A stretch of 11,177 nt of DNA, taken from assembly GCA_001192655.1 (NCBI GenBank), contig BBVC01000095.1, positions 1-11,177 of the forward strand. The letters are read 5' to 3'. Position 1 is the first letter of the stretch, and each line of letters starts with the position of its first letter. The position numbers and the translations under genes are program-made. Shown here one piece after another: positions 1-11,177 of this stretch. The notes under the pieces were generated by a model. The model ran no database searches. It was given only the letters and a program-made list of their open reading frames with translations, and was not told the DNA's origin. Source of the stretch: Caedimonas varicaedens (lineage in GTDB: Bacteria > Pseudomonadota > Alphaproteobacteria > Caedimonadales > Caedimonadaceae).

Positions 1-2
1 AG

Positions 3-461
3 CTATATATCAGCATCAAGAAAAGCTTATTGAATCTGAAAATCCGGAAGGAAAAGCTAGTCTATAAACCTGTTATAGAACAATATGACCATCTTCTTGC
101 ATTTAGCCCCAAGAAAAAATTTCCTTTTCCCGTGAGTTGGGAGGAATTGTATTCTTTATTTCCAAGACTGCTTTGTTATAAAGGGGTTATCCTTTCTCCT
201 CATGATCTTGTTCTCTGCCTTCAGGAAAGCCATTATCAATCGTGTTTGATCCCCCTTCAGAAAAATACCTGTCGTTATGAAATAACAGAAGATCTTCGAC
301 TTGAGCTCAGCCAGATCATGGCACACGATCAACTTTGGTATTCTGTTTGTATTGAAGGCTTGAGCATCACTCAAGTAAGAGAATGCGCCAATTTAATGAT
401 CCCGCAAAAAGGAGAATTGATGGGATATGCTGAATTTTTGAATAAACACGGACACAACTAA
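3..461 (+). CDS. Hypothetical protein, probably 5'-truncated by the window edge
   Basis: Frame 3 is open from position 3 to the TAA at 459-461. The ORF-track start at 30 is a TTG, and the first in-frame ATG lies far downstream (MAHDQ...), so the gene probably begins upstream of the window. No recognisable motif. Confidence 0.4.
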   Translation, partial: LYISIKKSLLNLKIRKEKLVYKPVIEQYDHLLAFSPKKKFPFPVSWEELYSLFPRLLCYKGVILSPHDLVLCLQESHYQSCLIPLQKNTCRYEITEDLRLELSQIMAHDQLWYSVCIEGLSITQVRECANLMIPQKGELMGYAEFLNKHGHN

Positions 462-463
462 AA

Positions 464-480
464 CTTTTTACATTAAAAAG
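464..480. terminator. Weak AT-only hairpin in the 21-nt gap between convergent genes
   Basis: CTTTTTA (464-470), CAT loop, TAAAAAG (474-480): a perfect 7-bp inverted repeat. It is entirely A/T apart from one G:C pair, so stability is low. Confidence 0.25.
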
Positions 481-482
481 AG

Positions 483-1796
483 CTAAAATAATTTATGTTT
501 CAAGGTTGCCCAAAGCCCCTTTATTCCCCCTATTTTCTTAATTTCCCTTGATTTATCCTTGTAATCTTTTCCCGCGTCCAAAAGGTCTGAGAGATTTTTA
601 TTAATAATCAAGGGATCATAAGCTGCATCAGGGTCTTCTCTTATGGATCCACCATGAAGGGGAGCAAACCAGCTATAAACAGATTGTTTAAGTTTTGACA
701 AAAAACCAGAAGATGCTTCGTTGTTACCAACGCCCTTGAGCAACTTTCCCCGCTCAATAGCGTCGTTTGTATTATCAAGCGCAAGGAAACCTACGCTTTT
801 ATAGCCTGCGTATTTATCTGCTAGATAATCGCCCGCAAAAGGAATTTTTTTGAAAAGCGACTCGCTTGTTTTGCCCAAGCCAGTATTGGGAACAGGATCA
901 TGTTTTACATTATGGCGAATCATATTATTTTGTCCTACATGGGAATTAAGCCAGTTAAACGATGTATCATCTCCATATACTCTTGCAGGTGCCAGGAAAT
1001 ATCCGAAAAATGTGTTGCTCTTTATATTATCGAAGTGTTCTCCAAAAGTCCTTTTCCCATAGTTTGCGGCAAGATCAGCAATGGCAAGAGACGCCAGAGA
1101 ACCACCTTGACTATGACCCGTTACAACAATCTTTACATCAGACTTCTTTTCAGGGCTGAGTGAATTTATAAAAAAATCAAGGGTGTTTTCCATGTTTTCT
1201 CTTGAACTTTGATATTTTAAGGCAATCCCTCGATGAACCCTACCTGGCATCATTAAACCCAGATCTTTTGCTAAAGTTTTTTTTGCATCTAGATTATTTT
1301 CCCAATCTTCTGAATTAGAGGAACCATGATACACAATTGTTATCATATTCAGCTTCGCATTATAGGCTACAAATCCAGGCGTATCATCATGAGAAAGCTT
1401 GATGCCATTTTTACCTGAAAAAGTCTTTATTTCCCAACCTTCATCCCTGAATTTCTGGATATAGGCAGCTGATTTTTTATCATGTTCTTTAACAATTGCA
1501 TAACTGAGATCATTCATCTCGAGAAGAGCATCCAGACTTTTCTGCAAAAGAGGATTAACTTCCAGATGATTATCAACCCCAGTACTTACAAGCGGTTGAT
1601 TTCTTTTATATTGTTCAGGATCTGTGTTTTCTATACTATGAGGGTGCGCACTATTTTCAAACAGGTCATCCCTGTTAATCTGACTATTTCTTTGGATAGC
1701 TTGAGTATGAGACTGTAAGTTTTCATCCGTAGAGAAATAATCACTTGCGAAAGATTCTTCAAATAATAAAATAATAATAAATATATACTTTATCAT
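483..1796 (-). CDS. Secreted class-3 (Lipase_3 family) lipase / phospholipase A1-like esterase
   Basis: 437-aa ORF. The nucleophile elbow VVTGHSQGGSLA (GHSQG encoded at 1104-1118, Ser229 codon at 1110-1112) follows the YHGS(S) strand typical of Lipase_3. A candidate catalytic Asp lies in HDPVPN (D300, 897-899), with a later His (PLHGG). The N-terminus MIKYIFIIILLFEESFA|SD looks like a Sec signal peptide. AGGTGA RBS lies 3 nt upstream of the ATG on the minus strand. Confidence 0.85.
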   Translation of the reverse strand: MIKYIFIIILLFEESFASDYFSTDENLQSHTQAIQRNSQINRDDLFENSAHPHSIENTDPEQYKRNQPLVSTGVDNHLEVNPLLQKSLDALLEMNDLSYAIVKEHDKKSAAYIQKFRDEGWEIKTFSGKNGIKLSHDDTPGFVAYNAKLNMITIVYHGSSNSEDWENNLDAKKTLAKDLGLMMPGRVHRGIALKYQSSRENMENTLDFFINSLSPEKKSDVKIVVTGHSQGGSLASLAIADLAANYGKRTFGEHFDNIKSNTFFGYFLAPARVYGDDTSFNWLNSHVGQNNMIRHNVKHDPVPNTGLGKTSESLFKKIPFAGDYLADKYAGYKSVGFLALDNTNDAIERGKLLKGVGNNEASSGFLSKLKQSVYSWFAPLHGGSIREDPDAAYDPLIINKNLSDLLDAGKDYKDKSREIKKIGGIKGLWATLKHKLF

Positions 1797-2027
1797 GATT
1801 CACCTAAAAATTATACATTAACACAGTACAATTGTAGTAAAAAATAATAAAAATATTATGAATTACAAAAAAATAATTTAGTATATTAGGTAATTTTAAT
1901 TTTTTTAGATATTATAAAGAAATAATAGAAAGCCTGTGAGCAGTAATATTGTAGAGAAGATAAAGACAAAAAATCATAAGATTTGTCATAAAGTCTCAAA
2001 AAATCTTCATAAAAATTTAAGAATTTC

Positions 2028-2056
2028 TGGACAAAAATCTCTTAATCACTTCTAAT
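2028..2056 (+). promoter_or_regulatory. Candidate sigma70 promoter for the DD-carboxypeptidase gene
   Basis: TGGACA (2028-2033, 5/6 to TTGACA), a 17-nt spacer, then TCTAAT (2051-2056, 5/6 to TATAAT). If real, the transcript would start near 2063, which argues against the GTG at 2073 as the start codon. Confidence 0.35.
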
Positions 2057-2105
2057 GTTATATTGTGCCTAAGTGTTATTATGGAGATTCAGAAAAGTGA
2101 AGAGA

Positions 2106-3347
2106 ATGCTTTTAAATTTGATGAGTGTGAGACTTTTTAGTGTTTTTACTTTCATCTTGTTGAATTTGTATGTTTTTTCTTCACCTGTTCAGGCGGTTAA
2201 ATATGCAGCACTTGTCATGGATGCTCATACAGGAAAAATCTTTCATACAAGTCAGGCAAATGTAAAAGTACCTCCTGCTTCTCTTACAAAAATAGCGACG
2301 CTTTATATCGTATTTGAAGAGCTTGAAGCAAAAAGATTAACTTTGGATTCAGTCATTAAGATTTCTAAAAATGCGGCTAAGCAGCCCCCCTGTAAACTTG
2401 GAATTCCTGCGGGGAAAACAATCTCGCTCAAAGAAGCTATTCTTGCGATAATGACGCGCTCAGCTAATGATATATCAGTAGCTGTTGCTGAAAAAATTTC
2501 AGGGACTGAGGCTGCCTTTGTTCAACGTATGAACCGCACGGCGTATGCGCTCGGGATGTACGATACGATCTTTAAAAATACTTCCGGTTTGCCCCATAAA
2601 AAACAAATAACCACAGCGAGCAATATGGCACGCCTTTCTCAGGCTCTTTTAAAAAGATTTCCCACGTATTATCGCTATTTCAGCACGAAAGTATTTAAGT
2701 ATAAGGGGCAAGAAATCCGTAATCATAATAAGTTACTGGGGCGCGTAGAGGGACTAGATGGCATTAAGACCGGGTTTGTCTGCGCTTCAGGTTTTAATAT
2801 TGCTACGTCTGCTGTGCGGGAGGGGCGCCGACTTATTGTTGTTGTCATGGGCGGTGCAACCCCTCAATGGCGTGATGAGCGCGTCATACACCTTCTGGAA
2901 ACAGCTTTTTCTCAATTGTCTCAAAAAAATAACAGGCTATCTCGTGAACCGTTACTTCTTGCAAAAGAAGAGTCTGAGTTTCCTCTTCAGACCACAGCCT
3001 ATAAGGAAACAATGGAAGACTCTCAACTTCCCGCACAGAAAAACGTCAGTGAGAAAAAAAATCCAGGAGATTGGTACGTCCAAGTAGGAACTTACAAGAA
3101 GGCAAATGATGCCCACATGGCGGCCGCCTTGTTGCTTGCAAAGCTGCCAGAGCATTATAACCCGGTCATTTCTGTCTCCAAATCGGACCTCAAACGGGCA
3201 AAGCATTATCGTGCACGGTTGGGTGGTTTTGATAAAGCTTCTGCGAATAAAGTATGTAAACTATTGAGAAAGCAAGGTGTGTCCTGCCTTGCCCTTAAAG
3301 AATCTTCCCGCACCAAAATGTTGACGGCTATGGTGGAAACAGGATAA
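2106..3347 (+). CDS. D-alanyl-D-alanine carboxypeptidase (peptidase S11, PBP5/6-like) with C-terminal SPOR domain
   Basis: All three penicillin-binding motifs are present in order: SLTK (2280-2291), SAN (2460-2468), KTG (2766-2774). Signal peptide MSVRLFSVFTFILLNLYVFSSPVQA|VK. The C-terminal about 75 aa (3072-3300; WYVQVGTYKKANDA...YRARLGGFDKASANKVCKLLRKQGVSC) has the SPOR pattern. The start is ambiguous among GTG 2073, ATG 2106 and ATG 2121; an ATG is preferred. Confidence 0.88.
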   Translation: MLLNLMSVRLFSVFTFILLNLYVFSSPVQAVKYAALVMDAHTGKIFHTSQANVKVPPASLTKIATLYIVFEELEAKRLTLDSVIKISKNAAKQPPCKLGIPAGKTISLKEAILAIMTRSANDISVAVAEKISGTEAAFVQRMNRTAYALGMYDTIFKNTSGLPHKKQITTASNMARLSQALLKRFPTYYRYFSTKVFKYKGQEIRNHNKLLGRVEGLDGIKTGFVCASGFNIATSAVREGRRLIVVVMGGATPQWRDERVIHLLETAFSQLSQKNNRLSREPLLLAKEESEFPLQTTAYKETMEDSQLPAQKNVSEKKNPGDWYVQVGTYKKANDAHMAAALLLAKLPEHYNPVISVSKSDLKRAKHYRARLGGFDKASANKVCKLLRKQGVSCLALKESSRTKMLTAMVETG

Positions 3348-3373
3348 GTAAAAAATTAGTTTTGGCAGCACAG

Positions 3374-3466
3374 ACAGGAATTTTTTGTATATAAAGACGA
3401 AGATACTTGAATCAGGATGCTTTTTGCCTGTAAGTTAACCGTTAAAAATACTTACAGGAATTTTTT
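3374..3466 (+). repeat. 13-bp direct repeat ACAGGAATTTTTT (3374-3386 and 3454-3466)
   Basis: Exact 13-nt match read directly from the sequence. The copies start 80 bp apart in the dacA-like/lysS intergenic region, and the second copy overlaps the 3' arm and T-run of the hairpin. Confidence 0.7.
3427..3466 (+). terminator. Intrinsic-terminator-like hairpin plus T-run just upstream of the lysS start (upstream-gene terminator or lysS leader attenuator)
   Basis: CCTGTAAGT (3427-3435) pairs perfectly with ACTTACAGG (3450-3458) across a 14-nt loop, followed by AATTTTTT (T-run 3461-3466). It ends 8 nt before the ATG at 3474. Confidence 0.45.
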
Positions 3467-3473
3467 AAAACCC

Positions 3474-4991
3474 ATGGCACACACAAAAGACTCTCTTTCA
3501 GATTTGAAAACAGAACTGGAAAATGAAACCAATCAATTCCGGGCTGCTCGCCTGACTAAATTAAAAGCTGTCTATGATTTAAATATAGACCCCTATCCTT
3601 CTGGTTTCAAAAAAGAACACGAGATTAGCGATCTTTTATCTCGATATTCTTTTTTAGAAGAGGGGCAAGAAACCCAAGACGTTGTGACAATTGCGGGTCG
3701 TATCCTGTCTATCCGTAATAGTGGCATGTTTATAGATTTACATGGACCTTCTGCAAAAATTCAGATATTTTCTCATAAAAACCATTTATCTGAAACCCAG
3801 CAAAAACTTTTATTGCTTCTGGATCTGGGAGATTTTATTGGAGTCAAGGGGACAGTGCGTCGCACACCCCGTGGAGAGATCACGATCAATGCCCAGGAAA
3901 TTACACTTTTAGGTAAAGCTCTTTTGCCGCCCCCCGAAAAATATCATGGATTAAGCGACCTGGAAACCCGCTACAGACAGCGTTATCTTGATTTAATGGC
4001 GAATCCTGAAACACGAGAACGCCTGCGTCAACGCTCACAAATCATTTCTGAAATTCGCTCCTGGCTTACTTCCCATAGTTTTTTGGAAGTGGAGACACCT
4101 ATGCTCCATACACTCGCAGGGGGAGCAGCGGCGCGACCGTTTAAAACCTATCATAACGCTCTTGATATGGAACTTTTTTTGCGCATCGCTCCAGAACTTT
4201 TTCTCAAGCGTCTTATCGTTGGCGGACTTTCAGATAAAATTTTTGAAATTAACCGCAATTTCCGCAATGAAGGAATTTCGACACGTCACAATCCTGAATT
4301 TACCATGATAGAGATCTATCAAGCTTATGCTGATGGAGATGTCATGATAGATTTGACAGAATCTCTTATGTATCACGTGGCACGCGAAGTCTTTGGTTCA
4401 GAAGAATTTGTTTTTGAGGAAAAAAAGCTTGATTTCAAAAAACCCTGGAACCGCAAACCTATGTTGACATTGGTAGAGGAAGCGACAAGCATTTGCTTTG
4501 AAAAAATTCATTCCCTTGAAGACGCAAAGAAAGCAGCGCATCAGAAAGGGATTGATGCAAATGATGCGCCGACCTGGGGACACGTTGTCGAGCAAGTATT
4601 TGCTGAGAAGGTTGAACATACGCTTATTCAACCTATCCATGTGACCGAATTTCCCCTTGATATTTCTCCTCTTGCCAAACCTCATCGCCATAAACCACGC
4701 CTGACCGAGCGATTTGAGACCTATATTAATGGCTGGGAGATAGCGAATGGATTTTCCGAGCTTTCTGATCCGCGTGACCAGCGGGAACGTTTTATGGAAC
4801 AAATGCGCGAGAAAGCTGCGGGGAATGAAGAAGCCATGCCGTTTGATGCGGACTTTATTACAGCTCTTGAGTATGGTTTTCCGCCTGCAGGAGGGCTTGG
4901 TATAGGAATTGATCGACTTGTCATGTTACTAACCAATTCACCCAGTATTCGCGATGTGATTGCTTTTCCAACCATGAGACTCAAAGAGTAA
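3474..4991 (+). CDS. lysS: Lysine--tRNA ligase, class II
   Basis: Class II motif 2 FRNEGISTRHNPEFTMIE (4260-4313) and motif 3 GGLGIGIDRLVMLL (starting 4890). An N-terminal OB anticodon-binding region is present (VTIAGRILSIRNSGMFIDLHG). The length from ATG 3474 (505 aa) and the N-terminal register (..ELENETNQFRAARLTKL) match typical LysS. The 19 extra codons from ATG 3417 look spurious. Confidence 0.95.
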   Translation: MAHTKDSLSDLKTELENETNQFRAARLTKLKAVYDLNIDPYPSGFKKEHEISDLLSRYSFLEEGQETQDVVTIAGRILSIRNSGMFIDLHGPSAKIQIFSHKNHLSETQQKLLLLLDLGDFIGVKGTVRRTPRGEITINAQEITLLGKALLPPPEKYHGLSDLETRYRQRYLDLMANPETRERLRQRSQIISEIRSWLTSHSFLEVETPMLHTLAGGAAARPFKTYHNALDMELFLRIAPELFLKRLIVGGLSDKIFEINRNFRNEGISTRHNPEFTMIEIYQAYADGDVMIDLTESLMYHVAREVFGSEEFVFEEKKLDFKKPWNRKPMLTLVEEATSICFEKIHSLEDAKKAAHQKGIDANDAPTWGHVVEQVFAEKVEHTLIQPIHVTEFPLDISPLAKPHRHKPRLTERFETYINGWEIANGFSELSDPRDQRERFMEQMREKAAGNEEAMPFDADFITALEYGFPPAGGLGIGIDRLVMLLTNSPSIRDVIAFPTMRLKE

Positions 4992-5036
4992 ATCTGGACA
5001 AGCATATTGACAGAAAAAATAACCGTAAAAAAGAAA

Positions 5037-5070
5037 AACACTCTGAAATTCCCACGAATTTCAGAGTGTT
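5037..5070. terminator. Rho-independent terminator shared by convergent lysS and the repressor gene
   Basis: Perfect 14-bp stem AACACTCTGAAATT / AATTTCAGAGTGTT with loop CCCACG (5051-5056). On the minus strand it is followed by TTTCTTTTTT, a good U-tract for the 5081-5974 gene. On the plus strand only TTTG follows. Confidence 0.8.
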
Positions 5071-5080
5071 TGAAAAGAAA

Positions 5081-5974
5081 TTAAGCGGCTTCAATCACCC
5101 CAATCACGCGATAGACAACTTTCATTGAGTTATTATCAATGTTTACAAGGTCATCATTTGATGCAGGTTGTGTTTTTGAACTCCGGTATACACGCAGCGT
5201 TATACAATCATTGTGTTCATGGTGGGAAGACCAGCCAATAAACTCACCAACGTATGCACGGTTATCATGTGTAATAACTAGAACTGAACAGTTTTGTGAT
5301 AACGGACGTGTTGGATGAGCAAAGATGTGATCTCCTGGACGATAACGTGATCCACCATATTCCCCGCTGACTTGGAAAGAAATAGCTCCTGGAACTCCGA
5401 CCAATGCGTGTGGCCGATTTATCCATTCAGAAGGTGCTTCAAATTCAATGGTGCAAACTTTATCGTTAAGCGTCTTGAGTTGGTAAAGAGGAAGGTCGGG
5501 TGCATTTAAACGAGGCACTGAAAATCCCTGTCCCTGTTCATAGGCTTCAGGTTCAGCAAGATGCATAACAGAAGAGTTAAACTTGTTGCCATAAGAATCA
5601 TTGGAAAGAAGATCCCCCGGATGGCAGGACAAAATATTTGCCAATCTTTGCAGGATATCTGCATTCAAGCGTCGCGTTCCGCTTTCAAGGCGAGAAAGGT
5701 AGGAAGGAGACAGTTTTGTCAAATTCGCTAATTCTTCAAGAGTAAATCCTCTTTGCAATCTTAAATCGCGCAGTGGGTGACGCGAACGCCTGCGTTTGCG
5801 TGTTAAAAGCTTATTTGCAACTGTTTGATTAAAACGATTCTGGATGATATTTCCAAAAGTTGAATCGCGGGAGTGAGTCCGCGAATCGTTGGCTGGCTGT
5901 TGGTTGATTTTACTTTCATTTGATTGCCAGTTTGTCTTTGAACTTGACCCTGCTTGCTTATTTTTTGTTTTCAT
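5081..5974 (-). CDS. XRE-family HTH transcriptional regulator with LexA/cI-type S24-like C-terminal domain (catalytic dyad apparently degenerate)
   Basis: HTH_3-type segment LRDLRLQRGFTLEELANLTKLSPSYLSRLESGTRRLNADILQRLANIL (about 5609-5776). The C-terminal about 138 aa (5084-5497) follows the LexA/cI layout: LPLY..., VSGEYGG (5351-5371) where G-[DM]-S-M is expected, PGDHIF in place of GD-x-V, and a terminal VIGVI strand. The N-terminal about 66 aa are basic, S/N/Q-rich and probably disordered. AAGGGA RBS lies 8 nt upstream. Confidence 0.8.
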   Translation of the reverse strand: MKTKNKQAGSSSKTNWQSNESKINQQPANDSRTHSRDSTFGNIIQNRFNQTVANKLLTRKRRRSRHPLRDLRLQRGFTLEELANLTKLSPSYLSRLESGTRRLNADILQRLANILSCHPGDLLSNDSYGNKFNSSVMHLAEPEAYEQGQGFSVPRLNAPDLPLYQLKTLNDKVCTIEFEAPSEWINRPHALVGVPGAISFQVSGEYGGSRYRPGDHIFAHPTRPLSQNCSVLVITHDNRAYVGEFIGWSSHHEHNDCITLRVYRSSKTQPASNDDLVNIDNNSMKVVYRVIGVIEAA

Positions 5975-6217
5975 TTATTTTTCCCTTTTTCGCCTCATTT
6001 TCTTCATCATAAAACGATCATTTATATTCACGAGTATCCACATTTATACTTGTATTTGACAAAAATTTAAAAAAAAGTTGACAAATTTAGTCCTAAAGGT
6101 CAAAAAATAATTTCATGTATGACCCATATATTGTATATGCTACATTTATATTTTCATGCAAGAAACATTTTTAAAATTTTTGAATAATTTTACATTAATC
6201 CAGAAGGAATATACTCG
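5975..6217. promoter_or_regulatory. AT-rich divergent control region between the repressor gene and the two small + strand genes
   Basis: 243 bp of non-coding sequence between divergent start codons. It contains tandem TTGACAAA(n)TTTA elements (6056-6069 and 6078-6089, starting 22 bp apart), a 9-bp direct repeat ACATTTATA (6040-6048 and 6142-6150) and a palindrome at 6125-6139. Exact promoters could not be assigned. Confidence 0.6.
6125..6139. promoter_or_regulatory. Candidate operator palindrome CATATA-TTG-TATATG
   Basis: Perfect 6-bp inverted repeat with a 3-bp spacer, flanked by an offset second pair ATGTA (6115-6119) / TACAT (6141-6145). It lies about 80 bp upstream of the 6218 start. 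Confidence 0.35.
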
Positions 6218-6823
6218 ATGAGTGTCAAAACTTCCAGAAAACTTTGGTCTGAAAAAGAAATAGAATACCTTTACATAGGACATCATCTAGGAGCTCCACT
6301 TAAAACACTCTCTGTTGTCTTCAATAGAACGGAATCAGCTTTAAGTAAAGCGCTGGTACGATTGGGTATTCGGCAATATGGCGCAACACCAAGAGGGCAG
6401 AAACCAAAATCCAGAAAAATGTCTATCATCACTCCAGAAAGGCTGTATCAGGAAATTTCTGAGTTTGCAAAAAAGAAAGGATATTTGGATGTTTCCTCTT
6501 CTTCCCAGTCTTTGGAAAATCCTGATCAAGAGTCATCATCTTTTCTTCTTTTCCCCAACCCCTTACTGAATTTTCCTGAGAGAAAGAAATCTCAGCCTAT
6601 GCCCCAATGGCTGGATTTGGATTGTGTCATTGCTATGTTAAAAAACAGGGGACACGTCTTATGCCGCAATACAGACTATTCTCAAACTCTGCAGGGTTTA
6701 AAGGCAGATTTTTTGCTGGATGGAATTCCTTTGACAGCAGCGCAATTATTAATACGCGCCAATCGCCTTCGTATTGAACAGGGTTTGGAACCATTTTATG
6801 TTGAAAATATTACAGAACATTAA
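6218..6823 (+). CDS. Hypothetical protein with Myb/SANT- or GcrA-like N-terminal HTH
   Basis: 201-aa ORF with a GAAGGAA RBS about 8 nt upstream. The N-terminus KLWSEKEIEYL...GAPLKTLSVVFNRTESALSKALVRLGI (about 6239-6376) matches the W-[ST]-x-x-E...L...G...R-[ST]-x-x-A...K...RLG-[IL] pattern of GcrA/Myb-like DNA-binding modules. A Ser-rich linker follows, and the C-terminal half is unrecognised. Confidence 0.6.
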   Translation: MSVKTSRKLWSEKEIEYLYIGHHLGAPLKTLSVVFNRTESALSKALVRLGIRQYGATPRGQKPKSRKMSIITPERLYQEISEFAKKKGYLDVSSSSQSLENPDQESSSFLLFPNPLLNFPERKKSQPMPQWLDLDCVIAMLKNRGHVLCRNTDYSQTLQGLKADFLLDGIPLTAAQLLIRANRLRIEQGLEPFYVENITEH

Positions 6824-6838
6824 ATAAAAGAGGTTTTT

Positions 6839-7357
6839 ATGAATAGATATTCCGTTGAAAATACTGAATTAATATTGCAACTTCCTCTAAAAACACGAGG
6901 ACGTCCGAAAGTAAGAAAAATGAACCATAACCGCTTGAAAAATTCCCGGTTCTTGTATGGGAATTCAAATCTGGCGCATCTATATAGTGAGAAAAAAATT
7001 ACACCAGAGCAATTTAATGCAGGAGAAAGCTTTCTGTGGATCTTACATGAAGTCAAAAAAAACATTCCTATCCCCCGCCTTGCCAAAAGTACGTATCAGG
7101 AGCGAATAGAAGGTATTATATGGGACCTGGGCTTAAAAAACGAAAAAAATCAAAAGGAAATTTTTAGATGGTGGCGTGCTTCTATTCTTGTATTGAAAGA
7201 GGCTGGGGGGACAACAAAAAACCTGTTGGAAAATTTTGTCTGGAATAATGACTCACCTCACACTCTTTCAGAAGTTGAGCTGCAACTCATTAAACGGGGA
7301 TTAGACCGTCTGACGCTTCTTTATAACGAAGCTCCAGCAGATAAAAATTTGCCCTGA
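6839..7357 (+). CDS. Hypothetical protein (RGRPK AT-hook-like motif near the N-terminus)
   Basis: 172-aa ORF starting 16 nt after the previous stop codon, with an AAGAGG RBS 5 nt upstream, so it is probably co-transcribed. RGRPK is encoded at 6896-6910. No family recognised. Confidence 0.6.
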   Translation: MNRYSVENTELILQLPLKTRGRPKVRKMNHNRLKNSRFLYGNSNLAHLYSEKKITPEQFNAGESFLWILHEVKKNIPIPRLAKSTYQERIEGIIWDLGLKNEKNQKEIFRWWRASILVLKEAGGTTKNLLENFVWNNDSPHTLSEVELQLIKRGLDRLTLLYNEAPADKNLP

Positions 7358-7406
7358 AATTTTTACTTTTCTTGACGGTGGCTTCGATTTATTTGCCGTT
7401 ACTCAT

Positions 7407-7440
7407 TTGTGATTTAACGAAATCATTTACAATGCATCAC
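7407..7440 (+). promoter_or_regulatory. Candidate promoter with nested inverted repeats upstream of the T6SS-associated operon
   Basis: TTGTGA (7407-7412) and TACAAT (7428-7433) are separated by a short 15-nt spacer. The spacer holds the inverted repeat TGATTT (7410-7415) / AAATCA (7420-7425), and an outer pair GTGAT (7409-7413) / ATCAC (7436-7440) surrounds it. Confidence 0.25.
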
Positions 7441-7481
7441 GAAACAAGTTAAATTTAAAATTAAAAACAAGGAAAAAGGCA

Positions 7482-8600
7482 GTGACAGGGGAAGAAGCCA
7501 TTTTTGGGATTGTTCGCAGAAGGGAAAATATTAAATCCCTTGCTGCACAAAAGCATTCTGCTCTCCCTTCTTCCATGACACAAGCCGCTTGGTACCAGGG
7601 GGATATTGAAGGCGAGCCTGTCGATGATTTAAAAAAAGATATGGCGAACCTTGATATTAAAAAGCAGCAACACCTTTCTGTCCCCAATAGAAAAGGGGGG
7701 AAAAAGATGAATAGACTATCCTTATTTGGCTTATTTATGGGACTTGTTGTTGCAGGGGCAGTTTTCTTTACAGCCGGATTTTTAATGTGTTATTCTCTCT
7801 ATCCTCCCTATGGGGGTATTATTTTCCACCCCAAATACGCATCTGTATTATCCGGTCAACCCTTGCCCATTGCTAACCCTGAAACAGTTGTGAATAGTAC
7901 ACCTGACGCTTCTTCCATGCCTGATGTACCGCAACACAGCTATTCTGATCGTCAGGCGCTTCTGGCAAGTGCAAACGGAACAGAAAATCCGGGAGTTTTA
8001 GAAAAAGCGCAACAAAGGACCATGGACAATGTAACCTATCAAATGGGCTATATGAAAGATCAGATAAAAGATCGTATGATCCAGGGTGTTCGTTCCGTCA
8101 CAAATAAATTAGGGGATAAAGTCTCTCCTGTTATAGGGAATCTTGCTGCACCTATTACGGAAGATCTGCCCAATCAAATCGTTAACGAAGAAGTTGGTGC
8201 TGCTTTTGACACCATTCCGTTATCAACGAAGAAGACACAGGGGAATTCTGCGCCTTCTCTTTCTTCTCCTGATAGATCTGCTTCTTCCCAATCATTACCT
8301 TCAAAATCAATGATTCCTGCTTCTCTATCCATGCGAAAAAATAATATATATTCCGTTCGTGTGCGAAAATTTGATGAACGCGAGTCCGCTCTCAAGTTGG
8401 CAGAAGAACTCAAGCGCAAGGGGTTTGAAGGATATGTCGTTCCTTTATGGAATGTTGATCATTTAGAATTTGAAGTTCGTTCTGGTGGATATGATAAATT
8501 TTCAGACGCTCAGAATGCATCCAAAATTCTTAGGGAACAAGGGCTGGAACTTACAAGCGTTGTCATGACAGGTCGTGACGAGGAGAAAATAAGCCCATGA
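7482..8600 (+). CDS. Bitopic membrane protein with C-terminal SPOR (peptidoglycan-binding) domain, FtsN/DedD-like architecture
   Basis: One TM helix LSLFGLFMGLVVAGAVFFTAGFLMCYSLY (about 7716-7802), then a long S/P/Q-rich linker. The C-terminal SPOR pattern is YSVRVRKFDERESALKLAEELKRKGFEGYVVPL...FEVRSGGYDKFSDAQNASKIL (about 8349-8573). Two start options: GTG 7482 (GGAAAAAGG upstream) or ATG 7707 (AAAAGGGGGG RBS at 7691-7700), giving 372 or 298 aa. The stop overlaps the next start (ATGA at 8597-8600). Confidence 0.75.
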   Translation: MTGEEAIFGIVRRRENIKSLAAQKHSALPSSMTQAAWYQGDIEGEPVDDLKKDMANLDIKKQQHLSVPNRKGGKKMNRLSLFGLFMGLVVAGAVFFTAGFLMCYSLYPPYGGIIFHPKYASVLSGQPLPIANPETVVNSTPDASSMPDVPQHSYSDRQALLASANGTENPGVLEKAQQRTMDNVTYQMGYMKDQIKDRMIQGVRSVTNKLGDKVSPVIGNLAAPITEDLPNQIVNEEVGAAFDTIPLSTKKTQGNSAPSLSSPDRSASSQSLPSKSMIPASLSMRKNNIYSVRVRKFDERESALKLAEELKRKGFEGYVVPLWNVDHLEFEVRSGGYDKFSDAQNASKILREQGLELTSVVMTGRDEEKISP

Positions 8601-9232
8601 TTTTAAAAGTAAAAGATCTGGGATTTCTTCTTTTTTGTTTTTTGGTATTTGGTCTGACAGGGTGTGGCGTATTTAAGGAAGAAGACACTTCAGGAGACCC
8701 CAAATTTAATCTTCAAACGGTTAATATTATTTTGGATACAGACGCGAATAATTACTCTGCCACAGAAGTTGATTTGGTGATTGCCTATAAGATGGATCTT
8801 TTCAAATCCCTTATGAAAATGAAGGCCGCAGACTATTTTGCCATTGCTGAGCAAATTCGCAGGGATTACCCTGAAATGCTGAAAGTCTGGCACTGGGAAT
8901 TAACGCCCGGGCAAACTATTAATGATTATCAGCTGAGCTCGTGTTTTATGTGTCCAGAAGCTTTTGGGGCTGTCATTTTTGCCCGCTATTTAACACCAGG
9001 ATCCCATCGTGTGCGCGTGGGATCTTCTGACACCATTCACGTTCTTTTAAAAAAGGAAGACCTGTGTATTGTAGAGCAGGGTTGCCCCAATCATTCGCTC
9101 CTTCTGCCCACTGCCAGCGACAATGATGCAAAAAAAGGGAAGAGTTTCAAACCTTCCCAACCTTCTGAACTGGAAGGTGAAATGAAAAAAATAACCGCTG
9201 TCGCGGATAAAATTAAAGGAGTGCTTAAATGA
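8597..9232 (+). CDS. tssJ: Outer-membrane lipoprotein, TssJ-like (T6SS membrane complex)
   Basis: Lipobox L-T-G-C (8654-8665, Cys23) follows a hydrophobic signal. The mature region follows the TssJ/SciN order: NIILDTDANN, VDLVIAYKMDLF...AADYF, ELTPGQ, GAVIFARY...HRVRV. It lies immediately upstream of tssK-tssL, the canonical tssJ position, with ATGA overlaps at both ends. Sequence similarity was judged by eye only. Confidence 0.62.
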   Translation: MILKVKDLGFLLFCFLVFGLTGCGVFKEEDTSGDPKFNLQTVNIILDTDANNYSATEVDLVIAYKMDLFKSLMKMKAADYFAIAEQIRRDYPEMLKVWHWELTPGQTINDYQLSSCFMCPEAFGAVIFARYLTPGSHRVRVGSSDTIHVLLKKEDLCIVEQGCPNHSLLLPTASDNDAKKGKSFKPSQPSELEGEMKKITAVADKIKGVLK

Positions 9233-10557
9233 TATACGGGGGAAATGTAAAGAACGCGATTCAATGGCATGAGGGCATGCTTTTACGTCCTCAACATTTC
9301 CAGCAAGCAGATCGACGCATTGAGCAACTTTTTGCGTACCACCTCAATACGATCATGACTCACCCATGGGGTATTATTCGCTTTATTTATGATACTGCCG
9401 CTATCGTTACGGGGGTTGTGCGGATATTGGATTTAGAGGCAATTCTGCCAGATGGTTTGGTACTTTCTCTTCATCAGACAGAAGGGGAAGATATTTATTT
9501 AAATCTGGAATCTTATCAGAAAGATCTCAAAGACAAAGTTATGACACTTTATTTGACAATTCCAGAATATCAGGCAGGAAGAGCCAATGTGAATAGCGAT
9601 AATCCGCGTTTTCGTTCGACAGAAAATCAGTCTGCCGTAGATGAGAATACAGGTGATGATGCCGTTGCATTTCCAGCGCTTAAGCCTAATTTTACTTTGT
9701 TGCTTTCTGAAACACAGCCTGGTCGTTGTGTTTCTCTGCCTTTAATGAAAATACAGAAAGTCGCGAACACCTATCAGGTTTTAGAGTTTATTCCCCCCCA
9801 ACTGAAGGTTGCCACTGATTCTTCTTTGGGTTTAATGTGTCGTAATTTGATTTATCGTATTCGTGAGAAAATGGCTTTTCTGGCAGATCGCCTCACGTCA
9901 CAAACTTCTGAATTGATGTCTGCTGAGGCAGAAAATGCGGTCAAAGCCCTTTGTTCAGGGCTATTGCCCCTTGAAGCAATGATTTCCGCCGGCGTTTCTC
10001 ATCCTTTTGATGTCTACATCCAGCTCAATAATCTTGCGGCTCATCTTATTTCTATTTCTCCGGGACAAATGGCGCCTTCTTTCACGCCTTATAATCATGA
10101 TGATGTACGATCAAGTTTTATCCAAGTTATCCAGTTTGCTGAAACGATGTTAGAGCGTATACAGGAAGGGTATTATGTGGTGCCCTTCACTCTGAAGGAT
10201 CGAGTTTTCTGCCTGGGTCTAAATGCTCAATGGATGACTTCTCGTCTTATTTTAGGCGCCAAGGCCTCTGCAAAAATGTCAGAAAAAGATGTTGTGGATT
10301 GGATTTCACAGACTGTTATTGCTACAGACAACTACGTGAATTCCTGTCGGGAAAAAAGAATTTTAGGCGCAAGCCGTAAAATTATTTCAGGTGTAGACGA
10401 GCTTAAACTTATGCCAGCACGAGATGTCGTTTTGTTTGCTGTTGAAAATACACCGAATTTTATAAGTTCTGATCAGGTTCTACAAGTCTTTAACGTTGCG
10501 GATTCAGAGGACATGAGGCCCGAAGAGCTTGTATTATACATTCCTAAAAATAGTTAA
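9229..10557 (+). CDS. tssK: Type VI secretion baseplate protein TssK (ImpJ/VasE family)
   Basis: The hallmark N-terminal motif IQWHEGMLLRPQHFQQADRRIEQL (9265-9315 covers W..DR) matches the TssK signature W-x-EGM-x-L-x-PQHFQQ-x-DR. Its 442-aa length is typical. AAGGAG RBS lies 7 nt upstream, and the start overlaps the tssJ-like stop (ATGA at 9229-9232). Confidence 0.9.
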   Translation: MIYGGNVKNAIQWHEGMLLRPQHFQQADRRIEQLFAYHLNTIMTHPWGIIRFIYDTAAIVTGVVRILDLEAILPDGLVLSLHQTEGEDIYLNLESYQKDLKDKVMTLYLTIPEYQAGRANVNSDNPRFRSTENQSAVDENTGDDAVAFPALKPNFTLLLSETQPGRCVSLPLMKIQKVANTYQVLEFIPPQLKVATDSSLGLMCRNLIYRIREKMAFLADRLTSQTSELMSAEAENAVKALCSGLLPLEAMISAGVSHPFDVYIQLNNLAAHLISISPGQMAPSFTPYNHDDVRSSFIQVIQFAETMLERIQEGYYVVPFTLKDRVFCLGLNAQWMTSRLILGAKASAKMSEKDVVDWISQTVIATDNYVNSCREKRILGASRKIISGVDELKLMPARDVVLFAVENTPNFISSDQVLQVFNVADSEDMRPEELVLYIPKNS

Positions 10558-10654
10558 GATGCCATATTATAAATGTGAAGGGGAATATTAAGGTCTTTAA
10601 AATAAAATAAACCCAAAATAAAGTCCAGAGAGTTAAGGGAGCTCGCGCAAATCA

Positions 10655-11177
10655 ATGAAATTTAACGCACTACGCCGACGCTTTGAAGATCAGGGAACCT
10701 CGTTTGTGATACGTGACTTTGAAGATTTTTATCTCCAGCTTTTAAAATATAAATCCATAATTGCCGGCACTCCTGTCACGCAAGATGAATTAGAGGCCAT
10801 AGCGCCTCAGGCTATTTCTGATACGCTTAAAACCACACTTGAACGGATGTCCATGGATGCCAGTCAAAAAGGTGGAGAATATGCCACCAGTTATTTTGAA
10901 GAAGCCATGTTTATTATGAGCGCTCTTGCAGATGAATTTTTTTTAAATCTAGCGTGGGAAGGGCGACAATATTGGGAAGACCACCTTTTGGAATCTCGCC
11001 TTTTCGGAACACATGATGCAGGAGATATCTTTTTTAAAAATCTGGATAATTTTCTGGGCGCCAGGGATCCCATGCGACGTGATCTTGCTGAAGTTTATCT
11101 TCTTGCTTTGGGGCTTGGATTCCAGGGTAAATATCGCAATACAGAAGATGGGGGAAAGCTTAATGTTAGCGCCGGAG
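10655..11177 (+). CDS. tssL: Type VI secretion membrane protein TssL (DotU family), 3'-truncated by the window edge
   Basis: Not in the supplied ORF track. My manual translation from ATG 10655 gives 174 codons with no stop up to the window end: MKFNALRRRFEDQGTSFVIRDFEDFYLQLL...EEAMFIMSALADEFFLNLAWEGRQYWEDHLLESRLFGTHDAGDIFFKNLDNFL...DLAEVYLLALGLGFQGKYR. The ALADE..W....W....L and E-x-Y-x-x-x-L-x-LGF-x-G-x-YR (11090-11137) blocks are DotU/TssL cytoplasmic-domain signatures. An in-frame TAA at 10634-10636 limits any upstream extension. Confidence 0.85.
   Translation, partial: MKFNALRRRFEDQGTSFVIRDFEDFYLQLLKYKSIIAGTPVTQDELEAIAPQAISDTLKTTLERMSMDASQKGGEYATSYFEEAMFIMSALADEFFLNLAWEGRQYWEDHLLESRLFGTHDAGDIFFKNLDNFLGARDPMRRDLAEVYLLALGLGFQGKYRNTEDGGKLNVSAG

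Follow-up and report, generated by a model that had tools for sequence, protein, structure and literature searches.

A SPOR-domain protein encoded in front of tssJ-tssK-tssL is a probable cell-wall anchor of the type VI secretion system in Caedimonas varicaedens and related Holosporales

In type VI secretion systems (T6SSs), a short 'ancestral' TssL is compensated by TagL, whose membrane domain binds TssL and whose OmpA-like domain binds peptidoglycan, and this OmpA-like domain can be fused to TssL with its function kept (PMC13584744). TagL, which is SciZ in the Sci-1 system of enteroaggregative Escherichia coli (EAEC), resides in the inner membrane as an accessory protein, and its gene belongs to the T6SS locus (PMC13584744). 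Another arrangement was noted by Broms et al. (2012), who listed 14 natural TssL(DotU)-SPOR fusions, in which a SPOR domain is joined to the T6SS inner-membrane core through a transmembrane (TM) helix and a linker and has been suggested to substitute for the OmpA-like extension (PMC3326028). The characterized SPOR domains all bind denuded glycans and direct their proteins to the septum (PMC6895207). Here we analyzed a stretch of 11,177 nucleotides from Caedimonas varicaedens (contig BBVC01000095.1, positions 1 to 11,177, hereafter the window), at the right end of which the gene of a SPOR-domain protein (7482..8600, + strand) leads a tssJ-tssK-tssL block. The product of this gene is probably an unrecognized T6SS cell-wall anchor and not a cell-division protein.

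A six-frame listing of open reading frames (ORFs) and direct reading placed four co-directional genes at the right end of the window, whose GC content is about 40%. The first, the SPOR-protein gene (372 aa, GTG start), runs into tssJ (8597..9232, +, 211 aa), with which it is translationally coupled through an ATGA stop/start overlap at 8597..8600 (+). A second ATGA overlap at 9229..9232 (+) couples tssJ to tssK, and both overlaps were thus read at exactly the coordinates given in the preliminary description of this DNA. The product of tssK (9229..10557, +), a baseplate subunit of 442 aa, matched PF05936 (E = 3.1e-42, 145.3 bits) and the equivalog model TIGR03353 (E = 6.8e-61, 206.7 bits, cutoff 100). 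A search for exact copies of this TssK sequence returned no record. The 5' part of tssL (10655..11177, +), which runs off the end of the window, matched the DotU family PF09850 (E = 4.3e-26, 92.3 bits). These matches agree with the order of TssK and DotU/TssL that had been read from the letters.

The family of the SPOR protein was collected by an exhaustive profile search over 1.8 billion representative proteins, from which the clusters at E <= 1e-10 were taken. This search returned 44 clusters, about 40 of them full-length (335-440 aa) and with the same layout, while the clusters below this threshold were generic SPOR matches. The named members came from Caedimonas sp. (metagenome-assembled genome, MAG, JAEUKR01), Ca. 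Nucleicultrix amoebiphila FS5 (WP_085784728.1), and a 'Holosporales bacterium' MAG, and members are labeled in the databases as 'SPOR domain-containing protein', 'cell division septation protein DedD' or 'hypothetical'. The other searches were less productive. The first homologue search gave six relatives, all aligning across the full 372 residues, a scan of a genome collection recovered one locus, from Caedimonas sp., and a scan of metagenome contigs with a 7-sequence alignment recovered 2 loci only. A third homologue search with a broad alignment was dominated by low-complexity candidates and added one new member (P0053). Short family matches (P0018, P0044, P0047 and others) were considered as SPOR-less variants and rejected, as they look like truncated gene calls. 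The residue counts given below were taken from a 31-sequence alignment of the family.

Synteny was read in 11 non-redundant lineages with DNA, a tblastn table being among the evidence. The lineages comprised the window with L002 and L013; L001 and L008; L003 and L004; L005 and L006; L007; L009 and L010; L011 and L012; L014; L015; L016 and L017; and L018 (lineages 1 to 11 in this order), and their family members shared 24-94% identity with the SPOR protein of the window. A TssJ-like gene stood directly 3' of the SPOR gene in 11 of 11 lineages and was followed by tssK, tssL, tssM and tssA as far as the contig reached. The junction between the SPOR gene and tssJ ranged from a 4-nt overlap, which was the same in L001, L002, L003, L005, L008 and L015, to a 30-nt gap. 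The tssM and tssA genes came after tssL in L001, L002, L009, L011 and L016, and the contig of L013 ends at the start of tssM. Of the further T6SS genes that had been named for a check downstream, tssM and tssA were thus found in the relatives 92-94% identical to the window (both in L002, and the start of tssM in L013). The upstream flanks varied (orf172, polyprenyl synthase, DivIC, glutaminase/pdh, a gene of the pyrH region, PfkB), and so did the flanks downstream of tssA (pyridine-nucleotide oxidoreductase, grpE, CDP-alcohol phosphatidyltransferase). Since the flanks on both sides differ among lineages, the six-gene block moves as a unit, and the recurrence of its gene order in 11 independent lineages shows that these genes did not come together by chance. 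These results indicated that the conserved unit consists of the SPOR gene, tssJ, tssK, tssL, tssM and tssA. The adjacency of the SPOR gene and tssJ, whose conservation had been put forward as a check, held in every relative recovered, even at identities as low as about 25%, and with at least five different annotated genes as upstream neighbors. The Holosporales cluster was published as [tssK-tssL-tssM-tssA], with other T6SS core genes at separate loci (PMC8163844); its two leading genes, the SPOR gene and tssJ, were overlooked.

The twelfth member (P0066, 503 aa, Pro/Ala-rich; contig JGI 3300059473), which is very divergent, was found after vgrG and the genes of a MORN protein and a DUF4280 (PAAR-like) protein. 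It is followed by a gene of 178 aa and then by rplU-rpmA-obg, and tssK is not adjacent. This locus is also a T6SS context, in which the SPOR gene and a small gene travel with a spike module and not with tssK.

The SPOR protein is predicted to have four parts. The N-terminal region (aa 1-78; 7482..7715, +) is cytoplasmic according to the alignments and the AlphaFold 2 (AF2) model. It carries the basic motif FGIVRRRE (R12 in 28/31 members) and, in another conserved helix, the motif KKxxHL with an invariant L65; the AF2 model contains helices at 4-23 and 46-64, at low confidence. The TM helix (aa 79-106, followed by PP; 7716..7799, +) was located by prediction (aa 78-106), by the alignments and in the AF2 model. 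One face of this helix is strongly conserved, with the consensus G-x-L-F-F-x-G-G-F-L-x-C-Y, at which the window protein has GAVFFTAGFLMCY, and F96 and G99 are invariant in the 31 sequences despite an overall identity of about 20%. The periplasmic region (7800..8342, +) contains the motif S-Y154-x-x-R157-Q (Y154 in 31/31 members, R157 in 29/31), long helices predicted at low confidence for aa 172-243, and a Ser-rich disordered linker (aa 245-285). The last part is a non-canonical SPOR domain (aa 288-364; 8343..8573, +).

The SPOR domain matched PF05036 with E = 1.1e-6 and 29.3 bits (cutoff 21), half of the model being aligned, and the same family was matched by 30 of 31 members at E <= 0.01 (best 1.3e-9). 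In the AF2 model, aa 290-362 form the ribonucleoprotein-like beta-alpha-beta-beta-alpha-beta fold with a predicted local distance difference test (pLDDT) score of about 83-90. The best PDB matches in Foldseek were CwlC 1x60 (E = 3.8e-4, template modeling score, TM-score, 0.73) and RlpA 6i09 (TM-score 0.79, root mean square deviation 2.2), and the domain also superposed on DedD 6ztg and DamX 2lfv. The profile of the family searched against PDB sequences gave a marginal CwlC match only, and a PHROGs search with the SPOR protein gave nothing. TM helix, linker and SPOR domain, as noted in the preliminary description, were therefore all recovered. The OmpA/Pal/MotB-type domain PF00691 was matched neither by the window protein nor by any of the 31 family members.

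The other proteins of the unit carried no recognizable wall-binding module. In the relatives with 92-94% identity to the window, the complete TssL has 258 aa and lacks a peptidoglycan-binding extension; in L002 the DotU domain occupies 50-231 and no other domain was found. Across the family loci TssL has 242-294 aa with the DotU domain only, which answers the earlier question of whether this TssL is a short form. TssM (1402-1437 aa in L002, at 4607-8845, and in L001, L009, L011 and L016) matched in Pfam the IcmF-related N-terminal domain only, and TssA matched ImpA_N only. No peptidoglycan-binding domain was found in TssM or TssA. Given these domain contents, the SPOR domain is the sole recognizable wall-binding module of the six-gene unit.

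We consider it fairly probable that the SPOR protein is a dedicated accessory of the Holosporales T6SS membrane complex and works as a wall anchor like TagL. The protein would span the inner membrane with a cytoplasmic N-terminus, and it would dock onto the TssL/TssM membrane core by means of the conserved motif of this N-terminus and of the conserved TM helix. The long flexible periplasmic linker would allow the SPOR domain to reach the peptidoglycan and to bind its glycan backbone. In this way the SPOR protein would supply the wall anchoring that a short TssL cannot give and that secretion presumably requires. In other T6SSs this task falls to TagL or to the OmpA-like domain of an 'evolved' TssL. 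The invariance of F96 and G99 and the near-invariance of R12, Y154 and R157 at about 20% overall identity suggest specific protein contacts and not a passive anchor, and judged from the alignment, the invariant TM residues and the cytoplasmic motif are as expected of a specific docking surface. The compensation by TagL and the natural TssL-SPOR fusions provide a precedent for such an anchor.

As in TagL-type systems, the gene is not a core gene yet is kept with the membrane-complex genes, and it adjoins tssJ-tssK-tssL in 11/11 lineages, with TssL proteins of the short form that have the DotU domain only; the membrane part of TagL likewise contacts TssL where TssL is short (PMC13584744). The two proteins are nevertheless built differently and share no sequence relationship. 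[quoted passage not shown] The TssL-SPOR fusions differ in that SPOR is on TssL itself. In the loci studied here, TssL is short (258 aa in L002), and the SPOR domain belongs to another protein, which brings a conserved cytoplasmic and TM module of its own. An origin by gene fission from such a fusion was considered and found no support, with DotU in 0 of the 10 nearest non-family SPOR matches scanned. The literature searched for links between SPOR and T6SS contained no stand-alone SPOR-type T6SS accessory, and a 2026 review of T6SS accessory genes has no SPOR protein among its entries (PMC13584744). The proposal of an undescribed T6SS accessory therefore stands, with the qualification that the link between SPOR and T6SS is not entirely new in view of the TssL-SPOR fusions; what is new is a stand-alone SPOR accessory, specific to Holosporales and relatives.

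Several observations weigh against this anchor role. At distances where TssJ, TssK and TssL share 38-55% identity, the SPOR protein retains about 25%, and its evolution is thus much faster than theirs. In Ca. Bodocaedibacter vickermanii, the gene upstream of the tssJ-like/tssK/tssL/tssM/tssA block (CPBP_00932) encodes a hypothetical protein of 203 aa with a TM helix at 81-103, which its authors flagged only as a predicted effector (PMC8163844). Its topology matches the SPOR family and it is too short for a SPOR domain, so it may be a SPOR-less or truncated member. Moreover, the beta1 Gln (RlpA Q270, FtsN Q251), which is the one highly conserved side chain of characterized SPOR domains and contacts N-acetylmuramic acid and N-acetylglucosamine of the denuded glycan (PMC6895207), is Arg293 in the window protein and variable in the family (E13, R5, Q5, L3, H2, T1; n = 31). 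The layout of the protein, with a basic cytoplasmic N-terminus, one TM helix, a linker and SPOR, is also identical to that of FtsN, DedD and DamX, and its SPOR fold matches the DedD and DamX structures. In addition, IMG names members DedD, and in L007 a septum-formation gene of the DivIC/FtsB type (126-440, +) precedes the SPOR gene by about 250 bp.

Because the glycan-binding Gln is replaced and variable across the family, peptidoglycan binding in the customary way is not assured, and specificity for denuded glycan is unproven. The replacement is particular to the T6SS-linked family, since the window encodes another SPOR protein, a D-Ala-D-Ala carboxypeptidase of the PBP5/DacC type with a C-terminal SPOR domain (2073-3347, +; Peptidase_S11 1e-52, PF05036 5.8e-8), which serves as an internal control and keeps the canonical beta1 YVQVG. 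The beta1 of the T6SS-linked protein is basic (VRVRKF), the canonical Phe is retained as F297, four residues after position 293, in 22/31 members, and R293, R295, K296 and R333 form a basic face of the beta-sheet. As this Phe and the basic face are kept, and as RlpA makes its contacts mostly via the backbone, glycan binding by the T6SS-linked SPOR domain is plausible from its sequence. The same residues bear on another explanation, in which the protein is a positioning factor: its SPOR domain would recognize amidase-processed, stem-peptide-free glycans and direct or time the insertion of the membrane complex at septal, new-pole or remodeled wall, and it would stand in for a specialized wall hydrolase like MltE or TagX. 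This explanation is the bolder version of the role suggested in the preliminary description. F297 and the basic face, together with the septal targeting of all characterized SPOR domains through denuded glycans (PMC6895207), fit this explanation, as does the need for remodeling by MltE in EAEC before TagL joins the complex, or for TagX in Acinetobacter (PMC13584744). There is also no hydrolase gene within the six-gene block. Set against the key Gln, which is not conserved, these points make a positioning role rather unlikely.

The similarity to FtsN, DedD and DamX corresponds to a different explanation, namely a housekeeping division protein of the FtsN/DedD type that stands in front of the T6SS genes and is co-transcribed with them by accident. 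Besides the shared architecture, the labels and the DivIC gene, the basic RRR motif of the N-terminus is in keeping with it, and 2 of the 31 members matched the FtsN model TIGR02223 weakly (best 3.5e-5). This motif is reminiscent of the N-terminus of FtsN, which binds FtsA. The genomic linkage argues the other way, since the association with tssJ outlasts every rearrangement in the 11 lineages and the twelfth member moves with vgrG and PAAR-like genes. No significant sequence match to FtsN, DedD or DamX was obtained either: the window protein matched no NCBIfam model, TIGR02223 included, and the family profile found no FtsN, DedD or DamX chain at E <= 1 among all PDB chains. The periplasmic S-Y-x-x-R-Q motif gave no reliable alignment with the essential region of FtsN. 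Furthermore, the TM helix of FtsN is reportedly replaceable, whereas that of the window family is strongly conserved; the family also differs in its replaced Gln and in a gene that is always inside T6SS clusters. In Ca. Bodocaedibacter, a distinct SPOR protein with one TM helix is encoded at another place in the genome (CPBP_00644, 296 aa). A division protein placed here by accident is therefore very unlikely in our judgment. In L009 a pdhABC cluster is near the SPOR gene, and this cluster and the DivIC gene of L007 may be a remnant of an ancestral neighborhood or a hint of a division link.

The second gene of the unit encodes a lipoprotein with the lipobox LTGC (8654-8665, +; L-T-G-C23). Among its TssJ-like homologues (n = 11, 41-98% identity) Cys23 is invariant and Gly22 nearly so. 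The identification as TssJ, proposed from the lipobox and the gene position, could not be confirmed by profiles: Pfam gave no match, T6SS-SciN (PF12790) included, the NCBIfam model TIGR03352 (TssJ) scored E = 0.0038 and 16.9 bits, below its cutoff of 31.6, and the profile of the lipoprotein family did not find TssJ among PDB sequences. Confirmation came from a structure prediction. An AF2 model built on the homologue alignment (core pLDDT about 80) shows a beta-sandwich whose second strand is followed by an insertion of two helices, and its six top Foldseek matches in the PDB were all TssJ (E 2e-5 to 3e-3, target TM-score 0.51-0.66), among them P. aeruginosa TssJ1 3zhn (E = 2e-5), Serratia Lip 4a1r, and EAEC 6ixh and 4y7o. 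Ordinary transthyretins scored far below the TssJ structures. By predicted fold only, then, the lipoprotein at 8597-9232 is TssJ.

Like SciN, Lip and TssJ1, the lipoprotein of the window has a lipobox and a predicted transthyretin-like beta-sandwich with a helical insertion after beta2, and its gene lies directly 5' of tssK. It differs in sharing only 11-14% identity with solved TssJ proteins, in falling under the Pfam and NCBIfam thresholds, and in two additional features, namely a disordered C-terminal tail that ends in a helix and a conserved pair of cysteines, C157 and C163. In the family this pair lies in the motif D-x-C157-x-x-E-Q-G-C163 and probably forms a disulfide, and the tail is variable, disordered and charged with a helix at its end. 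To our knowledge, neither the cysteine pair nor the helix-ended tail is known from solved TssJ proteins. A 2025 review described the T6SSs of Holosporales as apparently without TssJ (PMC11909080), and the paper on the Bodo saltans endosymbiont alone noted a 'tssJ-like' lipoprotein, via InterPro (PMC8163844). The present assignment indicates that TssJ is present in the Holosporales T6SS and is too divergent for profile models, whereby the supposedly missing TssJ is identified.

The divergent TssJ also allows a further explanation of the SPOR protein, as a TssJ-specific partner: an inner-membrane factor that escorts, tethers or regulates TssJ, or its link to a divergent periplasmic domain of TssM, with SPOR being secondary. 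A small gene directly follows the SPOR gene everywhere, as a TssJ-like gene in the 11 lineages and as the 178-aa gene of P0066, where tssK is not adjacent, and the SPOR gene is usually translationally coupled to it. The TssM proteins of L002, L001, L009, L011 and L016 had no Pfam match to the C-terminal IcmF domains, which are those usually contacting TssJ, and this pattern is consistent with a co-divergence of the periplasmic end of TssM with TssJ. CPBP_00932, possibly without SPOR and with the same N-in TM topology, points in the same direction. The retention of the SPOR domain in 30/31 members speaks against a secondary role of this domain, and we regard a TssJ-specific partner as improbable beside the wall anchor.

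The coordinates of the SPOR gene were also examined. The 75 N-terminal residues preceding an internal ATG at 7707 are conserved in the homologues, and the orthologous start is ATG in L001, L005 and L008 and GTG in the window, L002, L013, L003 and L007. On account of this conservation and of the ATG at the orthologous start, the GTG at 7482 is the real start and not the ATG at 7707. The ratio of nonsynonymous to synonymous polymorphism (pN/pS) of the gene was about 0.3 against its two closest relatives (L013 and L002). The gap of 124 bp 5' of the gene contains a tentative promoter-like site, TTTACA-18-TAAATT (7426..7455, +), which is a candidate only, because such sites are no commoner in the region than in shuffles (11 compared with 9.6, i.e. 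chance level). The promoter and terminator scan gave no terminator-like site at either gene junction, and the Rfam and tRNA scans of the window gave no matches.

Upstream of the T6SS block, the window contains the gene of a class II aminoacyl-tRNA synthetase of the D/K/N type (3417-4991), followed by a CI/Xre-like repressor (5081-5974, -; HTH_3 and a C-terminal domain, best PHROG 'transcriptional repressor' 8e-14). Between the repressor and the T6SS block lie two ORFs without family matches (6218-6823 and 6839-7357, +); the first is conserved in L013 and the second in L013 and L002, with no match to either ORF in the other recovered loci. Directly 5' of the T6SS unit, the segment 5081-7357 may represent a small insertion of a mobile or regulatory kind. 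Near the left end, a class-3 lipase of 437 aa (483-1796, -) matched PF01764 (9e-16) and has the serine motif GHSQG and a signal-peptide-like hydrophobic N-terminus; this enzyme may be one that the intracellular symbiont secretes.

The Holosporales (Alphaproteobacteria) are obligate symbionts of protists. Their T6SS has been called the most credible candidate for host interaction and 'non-standard' (PMC11909080). The present analysis indicates that its membrane-complex unit starts with an unrecognized sixth gene, which public databases label 'DedD', 'SPOR domain-containing' or 'hypothetical'. It is conceivable, though unlikely, that the SPOR accessory also couples the assembly of the membrane complex to stem-peptide-free glycan at the septum, the new poles or other amidase-processed wall. 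In that case the obligate intracellular Holosporales would build the T6SS only where and when the division machinery opens the sacculus and would need no dedicated wall hydrolase, and such a cell-cycle- or position-dependent assembly would be a mechanism undescribed for any T6SS. If the protein is the wall anchor that we favor, it would extend the rule that an accessory anchor compensates a short TssL, and it would represent a second, chemically different way to root a T6SS in the wall, through the glycan backbone and not the stem peptide.

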